This document shows positions 1 through 11,454 of a DNA stretch of 11,454 nucleotides, one piece after another. The position numbers were made by a program, and so were the translations under genes. The stretch lies in IMG/VR virus record IMGVR_UViG_2585427747_000005. The stretch is one strand, 5' to 3'. The notes under the pieces are model-generated. The model ran no database searches, was not told the DNA's origin, and worked only from the letters and a program-made list of their open reading frames with translations. The DNA is from a virus (Duplodnaviria; Heunggongvirae; Uroviricota; Caudoviricetes). Numbering within the stretch: the stretch's first letter is position 1; every line of letters begins with the position of its first letter.

Positions 1-1218
1 ATGAACAAACTGAGCGATACCTTGCTAAGGAAACTTCATGGTAAGCCAGCGGAGAAAAACACGTTTTATAGTGATGGCGGAAACCTGAGCGTGAAATATT
101 TAACATCAGGGAAATTGACCTGGTATTTCACATACAGGGCCGGAACGGGAAGGGAGACACGACCCGAACGCATTAAGCTGGGAAGTTATCCTGATCTGAG
201 CCTGAAAGCAGCCAGGGAAAAAGCCGCACAGTGTCGCACATGGCTGGCTGAGGGGAAAAATCCACGTCATGAGATGAATTACACCGTACAGGAAGCGTTA
301 AAGCCCGTAACGGTTGGCGATGCGCTCACCTACTGGCTTGAGTATTACGTAAAGGAAAACCGCGTGGATTATATCGCCCTGAAAAGGCGACTTAATAATC
401 ACGTAATACAGCAGATTGGTGCTATGCCGCTGGATAAATGCGAGCTACGGCACTGGCTGGCCTGTTTTGACCAGGTGGCAAAGCGAACGCCTGTTACTGC
501 CGGATTCGTGCTACAGGCGTGCAAACAGGCGCTTAAGTTCTGCCGTAGGCGGCGCTATGCAATCAGCAACGTTCTGGACGATCTGAACGTTGCGGACGTT
601 GGGAAAAAACCGGATATAAGCGAACGTGTCTTAAGTAACAAAGAACTTGGCGAATTATTGCAGGCACTGGACAAAAAAATATTCTCCCCTTACTACGTCG
701 CGTTAATCCGCCTCCTGATTGTCTTCGGAGCCAGAACGGTAGAACTGAGGTTATCGGAGATCGGGGAGTGGGATTTTACGGAAATGCTATGGACCGTTCC
801 GAAGGAGCACAGCAAAACGAAGGTCGCAATATTCCGGCCCATACCGGAAGCGATCCTGCCGTTCGTCACGCAGCTGGTGGAGCAGAACAGGCACACGGGC
901 TTATTGCTGGGGGAAGTGAAACAGGAGGCCAGCGTATCGCAGTATGGAAGATTAGCGCACTGGAGGCTTAATCACCCTCACTGGTCACTGCATGACATCC
1001 GGCGCACCTTTACAACCATGCTGAACGATTTAGGCGTTGATCCGCATGTCGTGGAGCAGCTTACAGGCCACCAGATGCCAGGAATGCAGCGAGTTTATAA
1101 TCATTCCCGTTATCTGGATGCGAAACGCAATGCGCTGGATATGTGGACGGAGCGGTTAGGGATACTGGCGGGAAAACATGAAAACGTAACCACGCTACCC
1201 GTAGCCAGAAGAAAATAA
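1..1218 (+). CDS. int: Tyrosine site-specific integrase, P4/CP4-57 family
   Basis: 405-aa ORF starting with ATG at 1; N-terminal arm-binding-type region (SDGGNLSVKY..WYFTYR); C-terminal catalytic motifs HDIRRT and VYNHSRY (HxxR and the catalytic Tyr). Confidence 0.9.
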   Translation: MNKLSDTLLRKLHGKPAEKNTFYSDGGNLSVKYLTSGKLTWYFTYRAGTGRETRPERIKLGSYPDLSLKAAREKAAQCRTWLAEGKNPRHEMNYTVQEALKPVTVGDALTYWLEYYVKENRVDYIALKRRLNNHVIQQIGAMPLDKCELRHWLACFDQVAKRTPVTAGFVLQACKQALKFCRRRRYAISNVLDDLNVADVGKKPDISERVLSNKELGELLQALDKKIFSPYYVALIRLLIVFGARTVELRLSEIGEWDFTEMLWTVPKEHSKTKVAIFRPIPEAILPFVTQLVEQNRHTGLLLGEVKQEASVSQYGRLAHWRLNHPHWSLHDIRRTFTTMLNDLGVDPHVVEQLTGHQMPGMQRVYNHSRYLDAKRNALDMWTERLGILAGKHENVTTLPVARRK

Positions 1219-1235
1219 TTTTTTTCGTGTTTTTT

Positions 1236-1251
1236 CAGTATGCGCATACTG
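1236..1251. promoter_or_regulatory. Perfect 16-bp palindrome CAGTATGCGCATACTG just downstream of the int stop
   Basis: Read directly; no flanking U-tract, so more likely a protein-binding site than an intrinsic terminator. Confidence 0.35.
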
Positions 1252-1273
1252 GATATGCGAACAGATACAACGT

Positions 1274-1313
1274 GCAACAATGAGCAACAATGTGGAACAA
1301 CTACGAACAAGAG
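1274..1313. repeat. Four tandem helically phased 10-bp repeats (GCAACAATGA, GCAACAATGT, GGAACAACTA, CGAACAAGAG)
   Basis: Exact 10-bp periodicity at 1274, 1284, 1294 and 1304, in the int-alpA intergenic region. Confidence 0.45.
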
Positions 1314-1583
1314 GCGAAAAAGCGTACGGATTTATAAGTAGCTGATTTTTAATGTGTTACTGGTTTTTTGTACACTAGCGAATCACTCTTTAAAGAGCGA
1401 GAAAAAAGGCATGGAACAATATTTTATGCCTTTGTATTAACATGAATTTAAAAGATTTTATTCTTACTGTTTCATTTTCTGTAAATCATACATCCTCAGT
1501 ATTTGCCATTCATCACTCTAGCGGGAACAATACGACACAATAAGACACCTGATGACTCTTTAAGAAACGAAAGGGGGGCAATA

Positions 1584-1772
1584 GTGTTAAGCACTGATCG
1601 GTTTATACGTGAAAAAGAATGCGAAAAACTAACCGGCCTTAGCCGTACGTGTCGCTACCGCCTGGAAAAGGCCGGACAATTCCCATCACGTCGTAAACTT
1701 GGCGGTCGTTCCGTTGGATGGTCTTTATCCGAGGTTCTGGCCTGGAAGGATAGCTGCAAGGCAGTTCATTAA
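1584..1772 (+). CDS. alpA: AlpA-family (Xis-like) transcriptional regulator / recombination directionality factor
   Basis: GTG start at 1584 preceded by a strong Shine-Dalgarno (AAAGGGGGG, 1571-1578); HTH segment LTGLSRTCRYRLEKAGQFP and KLGGRSVGW typical of the AlpA family. The track ORF starts at a TTG at 1503, which is unlikely. Confidence 0.8.
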   Translation: MLSTDRFIREKECEKLTGLSRTCRYRLEKAGQFPSRRKLGGRSVGWSLSEVLAWKDSCKAVH

Positions 1773-2041: not shown

Positions 2042-2230
2042 TCAGTCTGGTTCAGTTCGTTGCCATACCTGCAATGAGCGCTTTTCCCTGTACTCTTTAA
2101 GGAATTGCTCAAGGGCAAAAGCACATGGCGCGAATCTTTCTGATTCATGCTCTATCTTTCTGCGCCGTCTTTTCCGTGCCGGTGATAATGTTTTGGTCAA
2201 TTCTTTATCGGTCATTGTGTTGTCCTGCAT
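2042..2230 (-). CDS. Small basic hypothetical protein (RKRRRRK tract)
   Basis: 62-aa ORF. The likelier start is the internal ATG at 2215, which has an AGGA Shine-Dalgarno; it lies 42 nt downstream of the RHH-like gene and upstream of the minus-strand terminator. Confidence 0.45.
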   Translation of the reverse strand: MQDNTMTDKELTKTLSPARKRRRRKIEHESERFAPCAFALEQFLKEYREKRSLQVWQRTEPD

Positions 2231-2272
2231 AGCAATGCGCCGTAATACCTTACACCACGGCGCTGATGGTGA

Positions 2273-2855: not shown

Positions 2856-3141
2856 AAACCGCTTGCAAAAAATTATCACGGGGCTGTATGCTTCCCCCGT
2901 CGCCCACATGGCGACCGGGTTTGACAGCCTGAATACATCTGGCGGACAGCCGCCCACATCCGATAAGCGGTTTTTTTGTGTCCGTAAACCTACCCATACC
3001 CGCATTATGGCGGGGCGTAACGGGGGAGCCTTTGTGCTCGCTGGTTTCCAGATGACCAGTCTGTCAACCCTGTTACGTCTCGCCACCATGTTTGACAGCG
3101 TAGTAGCGAGACTCCTTAAAATTCATCTGGGAGCCTTTCAC

Positions 3142-4507: not shown

Positions 4508-6258
4508 AACTGGCACCGAACGTAAAACAGCAGTCACGCGGCATAAAACACAAAGAAACAGAAGTCATTATTTTTGCGGGTAGTGATGCCTGGTCACACG
4601 CAAAACAATGGCAGGAACATGACGCGCGTATGGCCGGAGATAATGAGCCTCCTGTGTGGCTTGGGGAGCAGCAGTTATCCGAACTGGATAAGCTGCAAAT
4701 TGTGCCGGAAGGCAGAAAATCCGTGCGCATATTCAGGGCCGGATATCTTGCGCCAGTAATGATAAAGGCGATTGGTCAGAAGCTGGCGGCGGCAGGCGTA
4801 CAGGATGCAAATTTTTACCCTGATGGTATGCACGGTCAGAAGGTGGAGAACTGGCGCGAATATCTGGCCCGTGAGCGCCAGAATCTTTCTGATGGTCTGG
4901 TCATTGAGCTTCCGGTAAAGCAAAAGGCGCAACTTTCGCAGATGGCGGACAGTGAGCGCGCGCAGCTGCTTGCCGATCGCTTTGATGGCGTTTGCGTACA
5001 TCCTGAAAGTGAAATCGTTCACGTATGGCGCGGCGGGGGATGGTGTCCGGTCAGCACAATGGAACTTAGCCGCGAAATGGTGGCGATCTATTCAGAGCAC
5101 AGGGCCACTTTCAGCAAGCGCGTAATCAATAACGCCGTGGAAGCGTTAAAAGTTATTGCCGAACCAATGGGCGAGCCGTCCGGCGATTTGTTGCCGTTCG
5201 CCAATGGTGCGCTTGACCTGAAAACGGGGGAATTTTCCCCGCACACGCCGGAGAACTGGATCACCACGCACAACGGCATTGAGTACACGCCACCAGCACC
5301 AGGGGAGAACATCCGCGATAACGCGCCAAACTTTCATAAATGGCTTGAGCACGCAGCCGGAAAAGACCCGCGCAAGATGATGCGTATATGTGCCGCGCTG
5401 TACATGATTATGGCGAACCGGTACGACTGGCAGATGTTTATTGAGGCCACCGGAGACGGCGGGAGCGGTAAAAGTACATTCACACACATAGCCAGCCTTC
5501 TGGCAGGGAAACAGAACACGGTAAGCGCTGAAATGACATCGCTTGATGATGCTGGTGGACGTGCGCAGGTTGTCGGGAGTCGTCTTATCGTCCTGGCTGA
5601 CCAGCCGAAATATACAGGCGAAGGAACGGGCATCAAGAAAATCACGGGCGGTGACCCCGTGGAAATTAACCCGAAATACGAAAAGCGTTTCACGGCGGTA
5701 ATCAGGGCGGTGGTGCTGGCGACCAACAATAACCCGATGATATTCACCGAACGGGCCGGAGGTGTGGCACGTCGTCGCGTGATTTTCCGTTTCGACAATA
5801 TCGTCAGTGAGGCCGAAAAAGACAGGGAGCTACCGGAAAAGATCGCGGCTGAAATCCCTGTCATTATCCGCCGATTGCTGGCGAACTTTACCGACCCTGA
5901 GAAGGCACGGGCTTTACTACTGGAACAGCGTGACGGTGATGAAGCTCTGGCAATAAAGCAACAGACGGATCCGGTTATTGAGTTTTGCCAGTTCCTGAAT
6001 TTTCTGGAGGAAGCGCGCGGCCTGATGATGGGGGGCGGTGGCGATTCAGTGAAGTACACGACCAGGAACAGCCTTTACCGCGTCTATCTGGCGTTTATGG
6101 CATACGCAGGCAGGAGCAAACCGCTAAACGTAAATGACTTTGGCAAGGCTATGAAGCCAGCCGCGAAAGTTTACGGACATGAATATATTACGCGGAAAGT
6201 TAAGGGAGTAACGCAGACTAACGCAATAACAACAGACGATTGCGACGCGTTTTTATAA
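4504..6258 (+). CDS. Replication initiator: P4-alpha-family primase C-terminal domain / SF3-type NTPase
   Basis: 584 aa; Walker A GDGGSGKST, Walker B-like RLIVLADQ, D5_N-like segment LPFANGALDLKTGEF; no obvious TOPRIM primase motif seen in the N-terminal third. Confidence 0.85.
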   Translation: MKLAPNVKQQSRGIKHKETEVIIFAGSDAWSHAKQWQEHDARMAGDNEPPVWLGEQQLSELDKLQIVPEGRKSVRIFRAGYLAPVMIKAIGQKLAAAGVQDANFYPDGMHGQKVENWREYLARERQNLSDGLVIELPVKQKAQLSQMADSERAQLLADRFDGVCVHPESEIVHVWRGGGWCPVSTMELSREMVAIYSEHRATFSKRVINNAVEALKVIAEPMGEPSGDLLPFANGALDLKTGEFSPHTPENWITTHNGIEYTPPAPGENIRDNAPNFHKWLEHAAGKDPRKMMRICAALYMIMANRYDWQMFIEATGDGGSGKSTFTHIASLLAGKQNTVSAEMTSLDDAGGRAQVVGSRLIVLADQPKYTGEGTGIKKITGGDPVEINPKYEKRFTAVIRAVVLATNNNPMIFTERAGGVARRRVIFRFDNIVSEAEKDRELPEKIAAEIPVIIRRLLANFTDPEKARALLLEQRDGDEALAIKQQTDPVIEFCQFLNFLEEARGLMMGGGGDSVKYTTRNSLYRVYLAFMAYAGRSKPLNVNDFGKAMKPAAKVYGHEYITRKVKGVTQTNAITTDDCDAFL

Positions 6259-6270
6259 TTTTTTGCAATG

Positions 6271-6498
6271 GCTGTCTACCCTGTCTACCTGAGTAAAGAA
6301 AAATACATTTAATTCAGTATATTAACTTAGGTAGGCAGCCTTTTTTCACTGTCTACCTACTATCTACCCTCTCTACCTGATTTTACCTGAATCAGACAGG
6401 GAGGTAGATACGGGGTAGATAGTGGATAAAAGCACTCTACCCCGCTGAAAGCCGCGCCATTACTGGCATGAGAGCCAGTAAGGTAGATAAGGTAGACA
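6271..6498. repeat. Origin of replication: iteron array (TGTCTACC and variants, both orientations)
   Basis: TGTCTACC at 6273, 6282 and 6350; ATCTACC at 6362; CTCTACC at 6371 and 6434; inverted GGTAGATA/GGTAGACA at 6403, 6414, 6482 and 6491; immediately downstream of the replication gene. Confidence 0.7.
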
Positions 6499-6546
6499 AG
6501 GGGAGGCACAACTCAAAACTTTTTAAACGAGGGGGTAAAAATAAAA

Positions 6547-7223: not shown

Positions 7224-7239
7224 GCGACGAGTGACAGAA

Positions 7240-7261
7240 GCCGGAGCAATCCGGCTTTTTT
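7240..7261 (+). terminator. Rho-independent terminator after ssb
   Basis: GCCGGA-gcaa-TCCGGC stem-loop followed by 6 T. Confidence 0.7.
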
Positions 7262-7325
7262 ACGGGGCCTCCTGGCGGGGTGGGCCTGAACACGGGGCGG
7301 GAGGCGCGGAAAAAAGCGCATTTTT
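7262..7325 (+). other. Degenerate cos-like repeat (diverged copy of the cosQ/cosN segment)
   Basis: ACGGGGCCTCCTGGCGGGGTGGGCCTGAACACGGGGCGGGAGGCGCGG aligns by eye with 9702-9755, but the cosN core is altered. Confidence 0.4.
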
Positions 7326-7441
7326 GTGATTTTATCGTCATCATCATCATGAGCGTAATTTATTGTTTTTAATTGTTTTGATGCAAAAAAGATGATGGTT
7401 ATGGTTAATTTTTGTTCGACATCTTTGCAGGCAGATAAAAA

Positions 7442-7478
7442 AGCCCGATAAGGTCAGAGGTGGCTTATCGGGCTTTTG
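7442..7478. terminator. 11-bp-stem hairpin flanked by A and T runs (possible bidirectional terminator)
   Basis: AGCCCGATAAG-gtcagaggtgg-CTTATCGGGCT then TTTT; A-run upstream. Confidence 0.4.
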
Positions 7479-7554
7479 CATATGAGGCTTTTTGGTGCAC
7501 TGACACACATGATCGGGATAATCATTTCATAATTTGCAACACAACTCAATATCA

Positions 7555-7603
7555 TTGCACAAAATGCAATCATGATTATAATCAGAGCTGGATGAACATC
7601 CAG
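7555..7603 (+). promoter_or_regulatory. Sigma70-like promoter for the head module, with overlapping palindromes
   Basis: -35 TTGCAC (7555-7560), 16-nt spacer, -10 TATAAT (7577-7582); ATTGCA-N5-TGCAAT (7554-7570) overlaps the -35; CTGGATG-aa-CATCCAG (7588-7603) sits at the predicted transcription start. Confidence 0.4.
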
Positions 7604-7638
7604 TTATGATTTTTTAAGTCGAAGAGGAATTTCTTACT

Positions 7639-7845
7639 ATGGCTGAAGAGAAAAAAGGCGGTGTTTCGGTGTACATAAGCCCCGAAATCGTGGAGGTGCT
7701 CAAGCAGCGCCACAAAAAAAACTATGAGGCTGGCGTGGCGGCTGGACTGGATCCGCTGATGACGCCGGAGCCGTCGATAGGTTCACTTGTACGCTCTTAT
7801 TTACTTGCGGCGCTTGGGATGCATAAAAATTATGGGGGTGAATAA
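7639..7845 (+). CDS. Hypothetical small protein upstream of the capsid gene
   Basis: 68-aa ORF; stop overlaps the capsid start (TAATG); possible strand-helix start (VSVYISPEIVEVLKQ). Confidence 0.5.
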   Translation: MAEEKKGGVSVYISPEIVEVLKQRHKKNYEAGVAAGLDPLMTPEPSIGSLVRSYLLAALGMHKNYGGE

Positions 7846-9259: not shown

Positions 9260-9673
9260 ATGGCAACGAATGAAAGCATCATGACGCTACCGCTGGCGAG
9301 TAAATTTAAAGCCGAAGCGCGGGCAATGGCTGACAGAGGTTTATCAACCTACGAGGCCGTATATCAACTCAACAAACTGGAAGAGCAGGACAAGCCGCGC
9401 GCTGATGCGATTATGGCGCTTCATGAGCATAACGACTATCAGCCGCTGTTACGTGCAATGGCAAACGTGCCTTGTATCGATGTTGGTACGGCTAAAAGCA
9501 TCCTTAGCATGACCATAGAGCAGGAACGCCAGAAGGTTGCGCCGGAGCTTACCGCAGCCTTTGAAAACTTTATGGACATGCACAGCCCGCAAGCCGTTTC
9601 AGCTGGCATGGCATACGACGGCAGAAACCCGGGCGATGATGGCGACATCGAGCGCATACTGAAAACCATCTGA
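9260..9673 (+). CDS. Hypothetical protein, last gene of the head-module operon
   Basis: 137-aa ORF with an AGGGGG Shine-Dalgarno; acidic and helical-looking; no confident homolog recognised. Confidence 0.55.
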   Translation: MATNESIMTLPLASKFKAEARAMADRGLSTYEAVYQLNKLEEQDKPRADAIMALHEHNDYQPLLRAMANVPCIDVGTAKSILSMTIEQERQKVAPELTAAFENFMDMHSPQAVSAGMAYDGRNPGDDGDIERILKTI

Positions 9674-10867: not shown

Positions 10868-10902
10868 GTGACGGAGAGTGACAACCAGTGACACGCCGTG
10901 AC
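10868..10902. repeat. Four GTGAC motifs at exact 10-bp spacing
   Basis: GTGAC at 10868, 10878, 10888 and 10898 (cGTGACg, aGTGACa, aGTGACa, cGTGACa). Confidence 0.5.
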
Positions 10903-11221
10903 AAAAGACGGTTTAACCGTTAATTAAAAATTGACGGGATTTTATGCTTTCCGGACGACGTGACCAACGTCATTTTTTAGCGAAAAGTTCTGATTAAGGT
11001 CATTGTCTGAATGGTCATAATGACCACTCCTACAAAACAGGTAAAGCCCACCAGCCTGATTAACAGTTAACCGGAAAAAAAATCCGGTAGCCCCGTTATG
11101 GGGATCCCCATATCAACATTAACGCCCCTCATGAATTAGCGCGCTTCCCCCTGGAAAGATGACCCGCCTGTATATTTCTTGTGTCTATTTGTTCCACGTT
11201 GTTTCATACAGTGCACCGAAC

Positions 11222-11243
11222 GGTGTAGTCACTGGTGTAGTCA
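11222..11243. repeat. Tandem 10-bp direct repeat GGTGTAGTCA x2 near the right junction
   Basis: GGTGTAGTCA at 11222-11231 and 11234-11243; adjacent palindromes CACCG-aa-CGGTG (11213-11224) and TGGGGATCCCCA (11099-11110). Confidence 0.4.
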
Positions 11244-11307
11244 TTTTGCGATTTATGGCACTTTTTGTAGTGCAAATCATTTAATTAAATCAATGCGTTA
11301 AGTGAAA

Positions 11308-11454
11308 TTAGTTATATATAACAGCAATAAATAATGCGAGAATAAACGGCACGATGATCTCGGCGGCAAAACGGATACCGCAGAGAATAATGACCAGCAT
11401 TCCCAACATAATGACGATTTTTAGGCCATTGAGCGTGATGATCGGCTTTGCCAT
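11308..11454 (-). pseudogene. tqsA: 5' fragment of an AI-2E family transporter gene (tqsA/ydgG-like), interrupted after about 46 codons
   Basis: Minus-strand translation [45 protein letters not shown] matches my recollection of the E. coli TqsA N-terminus, then diverges (IYN, stop at 11308-11310). Confidence 0.55.

Follow-up and report, generated by a model that had tools for sequence, protein, structure and literature searches.

Recombination directionality factors (RDFs) bind direct repeats that are spaced about one helical turn apart, often with a second site at a promoter, as is known for Apl (PMC7498355), Cox (PMC3936717) and Vis/RdfS (PMC11963761, PMC7286903). Cox of phage P2 and Apl of phage 186 are small winged-helix proteins of this type that form filaments on arrays of at least five to six short direct repeats, with 10-11 bp between the starts of successive repeats; arrays at both the attachment site and a promoter couple excision to transcription (PMC3936717, PMC7498355). 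For Cox, at least six boxes recur every 10-11 bp (PMC3936717). Cox arrays lie at P2 Pe-Pc, at P2 attP and at the P4 promoter PLL, where the array is upstream of vis, a homologue of alpA; the sites for Apl are at 186 pR-pL and att. Here, we describe an array of this general kind in a stretch of 11,454 nucleotides of caudoviricete DNA (IMG/VR record IMGVR_UViG_2585427747_000005; hereafter, the window), in the spacer between the integrase gene (int) and alpA. The kind of element is well known; this instance of it is newly pinpointed. On balance, we are inclined to read its direct repeats as helically phased sites for AlpA, a protein that the island itself encodes, serving both excision and the control of alpA.

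Judged from its sequence, the window holds an entire phage-inducible chromosomal island (PICI) of the EcCICFT073 family, integrated in tqsA, apart from the left junction; the window runs from int through the first codons of tqsA (11308-11454, minus strand). We place it in this well-studied family because its gene order and late module match those of EcCICFT073, because the two AlpA proteins are 94% identical and because its int-alpA region is 99.7% identical to that of a capsid-forming PICI (cf-PICI) inserted in tqsA of strain FORC_069. In Gram-negative PICIs, AlpA acts as the master switch. The 701 bases around the int-alpA spacer are present in 788 of 5426 complete Escherichia coli genomes sampled (approximately one in seven), O157:H7 among them.

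The distal array, so called to distinguish it from weaker units over the alpA promoter, comprises five units with a period of exactly 10 bp, one helical turn, and has the consensus TGGAACAACG (Table 1). A preliminary description of the locus had recorded four (G/C)NAACAA units at exact 10-bp spacing, and these are present (GCAACAA at 1274 and 1284, GGAACAA at 1294 and CGAACAA at 1304); it missed a fifth in-phase unit, GATACAA at 1264, which brings the number of ACAA cores in phase to five (1267-1310). Tandem Repeats Finder (TRF) reports a period of 10 at the array, and an independent repeat search also recovers it as a family (D1). The array has the at least three same-orientation repeats, with approximately 10-11 bp between starts, by which we recognize a repeat operator. 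At least four ACAA in exact 10-bp phase occurred in none of 5000 Markov-1 random windows; when any 4-mer at periods of 9-12 was allowed, the best run in 300 random windows was four units (found once) versus the five observed.

Conservation was assessed over E. coli genomes and IMG/VR contigs, in 55 distinct int-alpA spacers of loci with AlpA at least 87% identical. Five to six phased units are found in every one of them, at -295 to -348 from the alpA start, and the ACAA cores are 93% conserved versus 74% for the bases between the cores. Among seven E. coli islands that are 78-99% identical regionally, the cores are invariant and the bases between them vary; the two most divergent islands (one of the EcCICFT073 type) have six units and have lost the 16-bp palindrome that precedes the array in the window. 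Because the array is kept in all of the spacers and the palindrome is confined to one lineage, the former is the selected element and the latter a lineage-specific addition. These comparisons support the view that the array is real and under selection as a cis-element of the region controlling alpA, and to this extent the regulatory interpretation offered in the preliminary description holds, with AlpA as the most plausible binder.

The evidence that best shows what the repeats are comes from the arms of the attachment site, where arrays had gone unnoticed in the preliminary description, as had the second phased array, which covers the promoter of alpA. When the window was scanned with a position weight matrix derived from the units, a single additional strong array emerged, approximately 110 bp inside the right junction (the attR arm). 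In FORC_069 (L007), the attL arm holds four units (12800-12833) in the same orientation as those of attR, followed by a tandem doublet (12843-12866; GGTGTAGTCACT twice) and then by the start of int. The arm arrays share the motif and period of the distal array and are in the opposite orientation to it. CFT073 has the same four sites, namely attL arm, distal, proximal and attR arm. In both arms of three islands (the window, CFT073 and FORC_069), the 10-bp units lie directly beside tandem 12-mers, and islands integrated at four different chromosomal sites share a conserved left arm. The presence of one motif in attachment arms beside arm-type sites, as seen at attR, at the attL of L007 and in CFT073, is a further mark of a repeat operator.

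As the arm arrays adjoin accepted arm-type positions, it might be supposed that the N-terminal domain of the integrase uses the units as additional arm-type sites and that the integrase would then also regulate alpA or the 3' end of int. An arm-binding domain is present in the integrase, tandem arm-type sites with approximately 10-bp spacing are possible, and P4 Int represses its own promoter (PMC7286903). It is the 12-mers, however, and not the ACAA units, that co-vary with the arm-binding domain. The integrases of these islands are 88-100% identical, yet the islands occupy four sites (roxA side, tqsA, caiT and yifB). The doublets exist in two versions, GTAGTCACT and GTAGTTAAT (CAC/TAA variants), with the same version in both arms of each island, and the version tracks the integrase allele: 14 of the 18 class-fixed differences fall within the arm-binding domain, residues 1-57 (P 5e-10). 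No change in the ACAA arrays accompanies the two integrase classes, which differ at 13 positions within residues 12-57, and this constancy means that another conserved binder is needed. P4 carries, at the positions of these doublets, tandem 12-mers annotated as arm repeats. From the co-variation, the P4 arm repeats and the layout described for other PICIs (PMC10111431), we take the GGTGTAGTCACT-type doublets to be the integrase arm-type sites. The distal array, for its part, is internal, with island genes on both sides; it lies approximately 1.3 kb from the left junction and core, has no doublet adjoining and shows no co-variation with the integrase. A role for the ACAA units as integrase sites thus seems to us improbable.

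Several features single out AlpA as the most plausible binder of the arrays, at least on sequence and structural comparison. It is the only small DNA-binding protein common to all of the compared islands, and it provides the island-encoded small winged-helix RDF that belongs with a repeat operator. It is 45% identical to P4 Vis, and its structure model (pLDDT 86) has a predicted excisionase fold, being closest to the GIsul2 excisionase (TM 0.83-0.90), then to RdfS, Pukovnik Xis, TorI and BldC; excisionases and BldC bind direct repeats head to tail. In EcCICFT073, AlpA alone, without phage, activates a PalpA-lacZ fusion (PMC6092414). The published primers place the PalpA fragment at 5128-5583 of locus L020, from 33 nt before the int stop codon to alpA codon 19, and it contains both the distal and the proximal arrays. 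It corresponds to CFT073 1379127-1379582 and to approximately 1190-1640 of the window. As this fragment spans the spacer, the cis-elements for AlpA and for the helper response lie within the int-alpA region; a literature search found no mapping finer than the fragment itself.

The scheme that we favour, in which the arrays are AlpA sites, can be set out as follows. The island carries the motif at four sites: one in the attL arm, one in the attR arm, the distal site behind int and a weaker one at the promoter of alpA. Multimers of AlpA in the attachment arms, next to the integrase doublets, would give the DNA the shape required for excision, in the manner of lambda Xis beside P2. In the int-alpA spacer, the distal array would serve as a high-affinity upstream operator. 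Once a helper phage has triggered some alpA expression, AlpA would occupy the five or six distal units in a cooperative manner and the promoter-proximal units with lower affinity; the AT-rich spacer would thereby be remodelled and transcription of alpA increased, which would give the positive feedback measured for EcCICFT073. Between the array and the promoter, the conserved terminator hairpin would shield alpA from constitutive transcription of int. Counter-silencing is a plausible mode by analogy, given that H-NS represses an alpA promoter in Shewanella (PMC5148205). The identity of AlpA as the binder, together with the sign and mechanism of its effect on the promoter, is the part of the scheme that we infer.

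A number of observations weigh against this scheme. The proximal units overlap the -10 hexamer, which predicts repression, whereas activation has been reported. Some 196-208 bp separate the distal array from the -35 hexamer downstream of it, a terminator lies in this interval, and the distance is not helically fixed (196, 197, 199, 200 and 208 bp); with neither phase-locking nor an uninterrupted interval, a simple contact-activation model does not fit. EcCICFT073 AlpA leaves a Pint-lacZ fusion unchanged (PMC6092414), and the fragment used probably holds the attL array. In the Vibrio PICMIs, which are minimalist PICI-type satellites, AlpA has no effect on transcription (PMC10803314). The searchable literature yielded no report of this AlpA binding DNA. 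Every array-bearing island has a near-identical AlpA, and the next clade of AlpA proteins, at 64-72% identity, comes from islands that lack the array and are arranged differently (int, an extra open reading frame and alpA); its hosts include Kosakonia, Enterobacter, Phytobacter, Erwinia and Hafnia (L009-L015, L090-L100). The search for distant AlpA loci drew 10 from genome contigs and 80 from viral contigs, and a protein homologue search gave 19 close relatives.

Members of the 64-72% clade have features of their own in the corresponding places. A terminator-like hairpin stands within 10 nt upstream of alpA, its loop carrying CGAAC twice at 10-bp spacing, and the left arm (L009-L015) keeps TTGTTCA units together with a GTGTAGTCAGTG doublet. 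The Pseudomonas aeruginosa AlpA antiterminator was considered as a model for the island protein and rejected: it is a larger protein (eight helices, with residues beyond 140) that uses a single 6-bp site between -35 and -10 (PMC9371919).

Induction of alpA by helper phage does not depend on SOS in EcCICFT073, and its inducer was described as unknown (PMC6092414); the distal array is part of the helper-responsive reporter pJP1290, which shares its starting primer with the PalpA fragment. The array might, accordingly, be a receptor for a helper-phage protein, such as a helper excisionase or a Cox-like RDF, that switches on alpA, with AlpA sharing the sites or binding elsewhere. There is an analogy in P2 Cox, which binds phased cox-boxes upstream of P4 PLL (the vis promoter) to derepress P4, and the three 10-bp repeats upstream of vis match the cox-box consensus TTAAAG/CNCA (PMC3936717). 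Cross-talk of AlpA-family excisionases with helper Xis is documented (PMC11773190), and islands of the EcCIEDL933 and EcCICFT073 types differ both in their helpers and in the int-alpA spacer. The array motif is nevertheless the same across islands with different helpers and cannot alone set helper specificity; its recurrence in the attachment arms of the island points to the RDF that the island itself encodes; its units match neither cox-boxes nor lambda Xis sites; and AlpA by itself activates the PalpA fragment without phage. We regard a helper receptor as unlikely. The same low expectation attaches to a broader version drawn by analogy, in which the distal array and the lineage-specific palindrome would together be the cis-element for the helper switch-on of Gram-negative PICIs: a helper excisionase-like protein would nucleate on the array and open the alpA promoter, AlpA would then take over for feedback and excision, and the palindrome or the number of units would tune helper recognition. 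If so, the helper-nucleated array would be the PICI counterpart of P2 Cox at P4 PLL. Neither an AlpA binding site nor a helper-responsive element was found to be defined in the searchable papers.

The base composition of the spacer (35% G+C versus 49% for the whole window) also invites a structural explanation, by which the array would be a feature of AT-rich DNA, either curvature from phased A-runs or a nucleation point at which H-NS, Fis or IHF silences alpA, with no island-specific binder. H-NS is known to bind and repress the alpA promoter in Shewanella CP4So (PMC5148205). Predicted curvature is unremarkable, however (95th percentile of the window for the distal array and 76th for the attR array, with approximate wedge parameters), and the units hold only A2 runs, short of the at least four bases of a phased A-tract. 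The fixed C and G of TGGAACAACG are conserved and are not needed for curvature, and the spacer contains no match to the IHF consensus. Silencing by H-NS would be compatible with AlpA binding. As a full account of the array, the structural explanation is in our view about as doubtful as an integrase role.

Between the array and alpA, the spacer holds a terminator-shaped hairpin and a promoter. For the hairpin, RNAalifold gives 12 pairs, of which one is compensatory (A-U to G-C), with several G-U to A-U changes; a simple terminator scan did not flag it. It is predicted to be an intrinsic terminator that probably ends int transcripts and insulates alpA. In the predicted alpA promoter, TTGCCA-17-(A/C)ACAAT is invariant in 55 of 55 spacers, even though the 17-bp spacer is of three unrelated sequence types, which is good comparative evidence that this is the alpA promoter. 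No further convincing or conserved promoter was found on either strand of the array-to-terminator interval, by promoter scan or by eye. The proximal units, which resemble GACACAAT and which TRF recovers with period 10 at 1527-1548, are a weaker version of the motif (unit scores 9.5, 4.0 and -3.0). In EcCICFT073, GACACAAT/GACACAAC units stand at the same place, and the periodic run is stronger there than in the window.

With a conserved terminator downstream, the array would be within an int 3' untranslated region of approximately 220 nt that ends at the hairpin, and it could act as RNA: together with a stem-loop at approximately 1226-1260, it might affect int mRNA stability or yield a 3'-derived small RNA. 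The 16-bp palindrome, which as RNA could form a stem-loop just 3' of the int stop codon, does extend into a longer stem in the RNA fold. Against this, the fold z-score is only -1.85 (1219-1445), there is no Rfam family match in 1219-1583, and the array is predicted to be largely unpaired. The motif is inverted in the attachment arms, which are untranscribed or differently transcribed, and an exact 10-nt period has no known RNA meaning. We consider an RNA element very improbable.

The two palindromes of the spacer, both of which were correctly reported in the preliminary description, lie outside the conserved core. A perfect 16-bp palindrome such as that at 1236-1251 arises in 0.9% of shuffled 365-bp spacers (P 0.009) and in 18% of random 11.4-kb windows (P 0.18). 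Palindrome and half-site counts were taken over 62 distinct related loci. The 16-bp palindrome is present in 42 of these and absent from every spacer with a six-unit array (EcCICFT073 type) except L055; in the 20 loci of the EcCICFT073-type lineage, all without it, an additional array unit takes its place. The 12-bp palindrome CTCTTTAAAGAG (1386-1397) is not above chance (3.3 expected per window; P 0.12 in the spacer), although its half-sites change together in some relatives (CTC/GAG to CGC/GCG).

It had further been proposed that recurrence of the half-site CAGTATGC beside the operator region hints at one regulator touching both loci. The half-site does recur there, at 2481-2488 rather than at the 2483-2490 first given (a 2-bp slip), and a third copy lies at 9654-9661, inside a late gene; two copies beyond the palindrome versus 0.38 expected is marginal. 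The link between the palindrome and the operator is not borne out. Of the 42 palindrome loci, the downstream CAGTATGC is present in seven and absent in 35 (Fisher P 0.085), and among the 62 loci these seven are exactly the ones carrying the GTGTTYAACAC operator module, from which it follows that the half-site travels with that module. The EcCICFT073-type loci without the palindrome and the late-gene copy of CAGTATGC also speak against a shared regulator. The 8-mer is best treated as part of the operator module, or as chance.

A second short motif, ACTCTTTAA, occurs in three same-strand copies (1385, 1555 and 2092, plus strand) versus 0.03 expected per window. The copy at 1555 is kept in 55 of 55 spacers, a few of them with A-to-G at the eighth base. 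Pairing of this copy with the alpA Shine-Dalgarno sequence is possible, a hint of translational control. The third copy, followed by a GGGCAA-type look-alike of a ribosome-binding site, precedes a strongly hydrophobic open reading frame of 35 codons (MARIFLIHALSFCAVFSVPVIMFWSILYRSLCCPA; 2125-2232, plus strand) that overlaps a minus-strand open reading frame at 2042-2230.

Table 1. Coordinates of the array, its related sites and neighbouring features in the window.
Feature	Position	Strand	Sequence or remarks
Integrase gene (int)	1..1218	+	P4-type tyrosine integrase with arm-binding domain; Pfam Arm-DNA-bind_3 (1e-18) and Phage_integrase (1e-15); RefSeq relatives
Perfect 16-bp palindrome	1236..1251		CAGTATGCGCATACTG; lineage-specific
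Distal phased array	1263..1312	+	Five 10-bp units: AGATACAACG, TGCAACAATG, AGCAACAATG, TGGAACAACT, ACGAACAAGA; proposed AlpA operator
ACTCTTTAA copy 1	1385..1397		Within 12-bp palindrome CTCTTTAAAGAG; weakly conserved
Terminator-shaped hairpin	1405..1438 (hairpin 1405-1433)	+	Conserved; A-tract, 12-bp stem, 5-nt loop, T-rich tail
Predicted sigma-70 alpA promoter	1503..1531	+	-35 TTGCCA (1503-1508), 17-bp spacer, -10 AACAAT (1526-1531); from promoter scan
Proximal phased units	1523..1552	+	GGGAACAATA, CGACACAATA, AGACACCTGA; weaker copy of the array motif, overlapping -10 hexamer and the predicted transcript start near 1538
ACTCTTTAA copy 2	1555..1563	+	alpA leader; 10 nt upstream of Shine-Dalgarno GGGGGG (1573-1578)
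alpA	1584..1772	+	62 aa, GTG start; winged-helix regulator and RDF; Pfam Phage_AlpA (PF05930) 5e-17
attR-arm array	11177..11206	-	TGAAACAACG, TGGAACAAAT, AGACACAAGA (minus-strand reading); score 30.7 versus null 95th percentile 12.7
Tandem 12-mer doublet	11222..11245	+	GGTGTAGTCACT GGTGTAGTCATT; putative integrase arm-type sites, adjoining the attR array
Presumed crossover region	11311..11327		Right tqsA junction; ATAACAGCA common to the left junction (FORC_069 junction comparison)

Some further features of the right arm may be recorded. A second perfect 16-bp palindrome, TATGGGGATCCCCATA, lies at 11097-11112; one IHF-consensus match (11288-11300) falls between the integrase doublet and the junction; and a 12-bp palindrome, GTTATATATAAC, is found at the presumed crossover region (11311-11322). 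The cf-PICI of FORC_069 has, in addition, a TTGT array of three to four units (L007 20811-20848) right after a terminator and approximately 210 bp upstream of the capsid operon, which suggests direct AlpA control of packaging genes there; positions 7224-7640 of the window hold no counterpart.

Elsewhere in the window, the annotated start of int in relatives is 12 nt upstream of the first base. The other island genes include a D5_N primase gene, an SSB gene and a late module with a capsid-E-like gene. A C4-type antisense RNA and a YlcI/YnfO-like gene lie in a variable zone after alpA. Rfam hits exceeding the gathering score for the C4 antisense RNA (72.6 bits) and the a1/b1 target (46.8 bits), at 2886-2935 and 3003-3090 (plus strand), identify what by sequence is an immunity RNA system of the P1/P4 type; a sub-threshold isrK match overlaps the C4 RNA region. 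Directly past the last late open reading frame, GTGAC occurs four times at exact 10-bp spacing (10868-10902, plus strand; TRF period 10); this phased array of a different motif could be a packaging site or another protein-binding site. Directly downstream of the primase gene, at 6272-6501, are the short tandem repeats CTGTCTACC, ACTATCTACCT and TAAGGTAGA, with 9-11-bp repeats. They are probably origin iterons and probably also the 'first' array that the title of the preliminary description implied. The distal array was itself considered as a set of replication-origin iterons and this was rejected, as it lies between int and alpA, and it is these separate repeats that follow the primase gene. 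Also rejected was a small open reading frame across the array: the CFT073-type spacer interrupts the 33-codon frame at 1241-1342 after its fourth codon, and a period of 10 bp is incompatible with coding.

The comparison yields a concrete, mutable 10-bp motif at four sites, separated from the integrase arm-type sites. It leads to the prediction that a single protein couples excision, at attL and attR, to the alpA feedback loop, which makes the mechanism of induction directly testable. The motif also provides a sequence signature with which the attachment arms and control regions of PICIs can be annotated. Full-text literature searches found neither this array nor the four-site pattern in PICIs, the closest paper describing doublets only (PMC10111431).

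That paper concerns helper-embedded PICIs, whose attP arms carry a doubled TGTATTGC as tandem 12-mers, with one doublet per arm, co-oriented and approximately 80 and 130 bp from the core (PMC10111431). The GGTGTAGTCACT doublets share this layout. The TGTATTGC doublet was proposed to bind either integrase arm domains or AlpA, and was reported to be unique to helper-embedded PICIs; phased ACAA-type arrays were not described (PMC10111431). In the islands considered here, by contrast, co-variation assigns the doublets to the integrase, and the arrays are a separate element.

The order of sites in the left arm is recognizable in P4, which has the core, a phased array (CGGA three times at 10 bp), an arm doublet and then the start of int; CGGA motifs are also present in the vis leader. 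Vis is both an excisionase and a regulator of Pint, PLL and Psid, repressing Pint and being needed for excision (PMC7286903, citing Cali 2004 and Piazzolla 2006). The organization differs, in that int and vis of P4 are far apart and divergently organized, whereas alpA of the island follows int with an extra array between them. Vis is said, in work attributed to Polo in 1996, to repress PLL. AlpA, by contrast, is reported to activate its own promoter. In lambda, the Xis sites X1-X1.5-X2, at 10-bp intervals, abut the Int arm site P2, and Xis is a winged-helix protein of the same fold class as AlpA. The lambda Xis sites are in one arm only, with none at a promoter, and AlpA and Xis have no sequence similarity. 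The lambda P' arm TTTGTTGCAACGAACAGGTCACTAT (L101 330-350) nevertheless resembles the island left arm TTTGTGCAACGATCGGTGTAGTCACT (L007 12828-12855), including the AGTCACT core of the lambda arm-type sites, which may reflect a common ancestry of the arm architecture.

In its number of repeats, its period and its presence at both attachment site and promoter, the island system is most readily compared with those of P2 Cox and 186 Apl. AlpA is not a homologue of Cox or Apl by sequence, and the motifs differ, the island units (TGGAACAACG) not being cox-boxes (TTAAAG/CNCA; PMC3936717). The island differs from both phages, moreover, in having a distal array that is approximately 200 bp from the promoter and behind a terminator, in having arrays in both arms, and in that binding by AlpA is here proposed from the comparisons described above.

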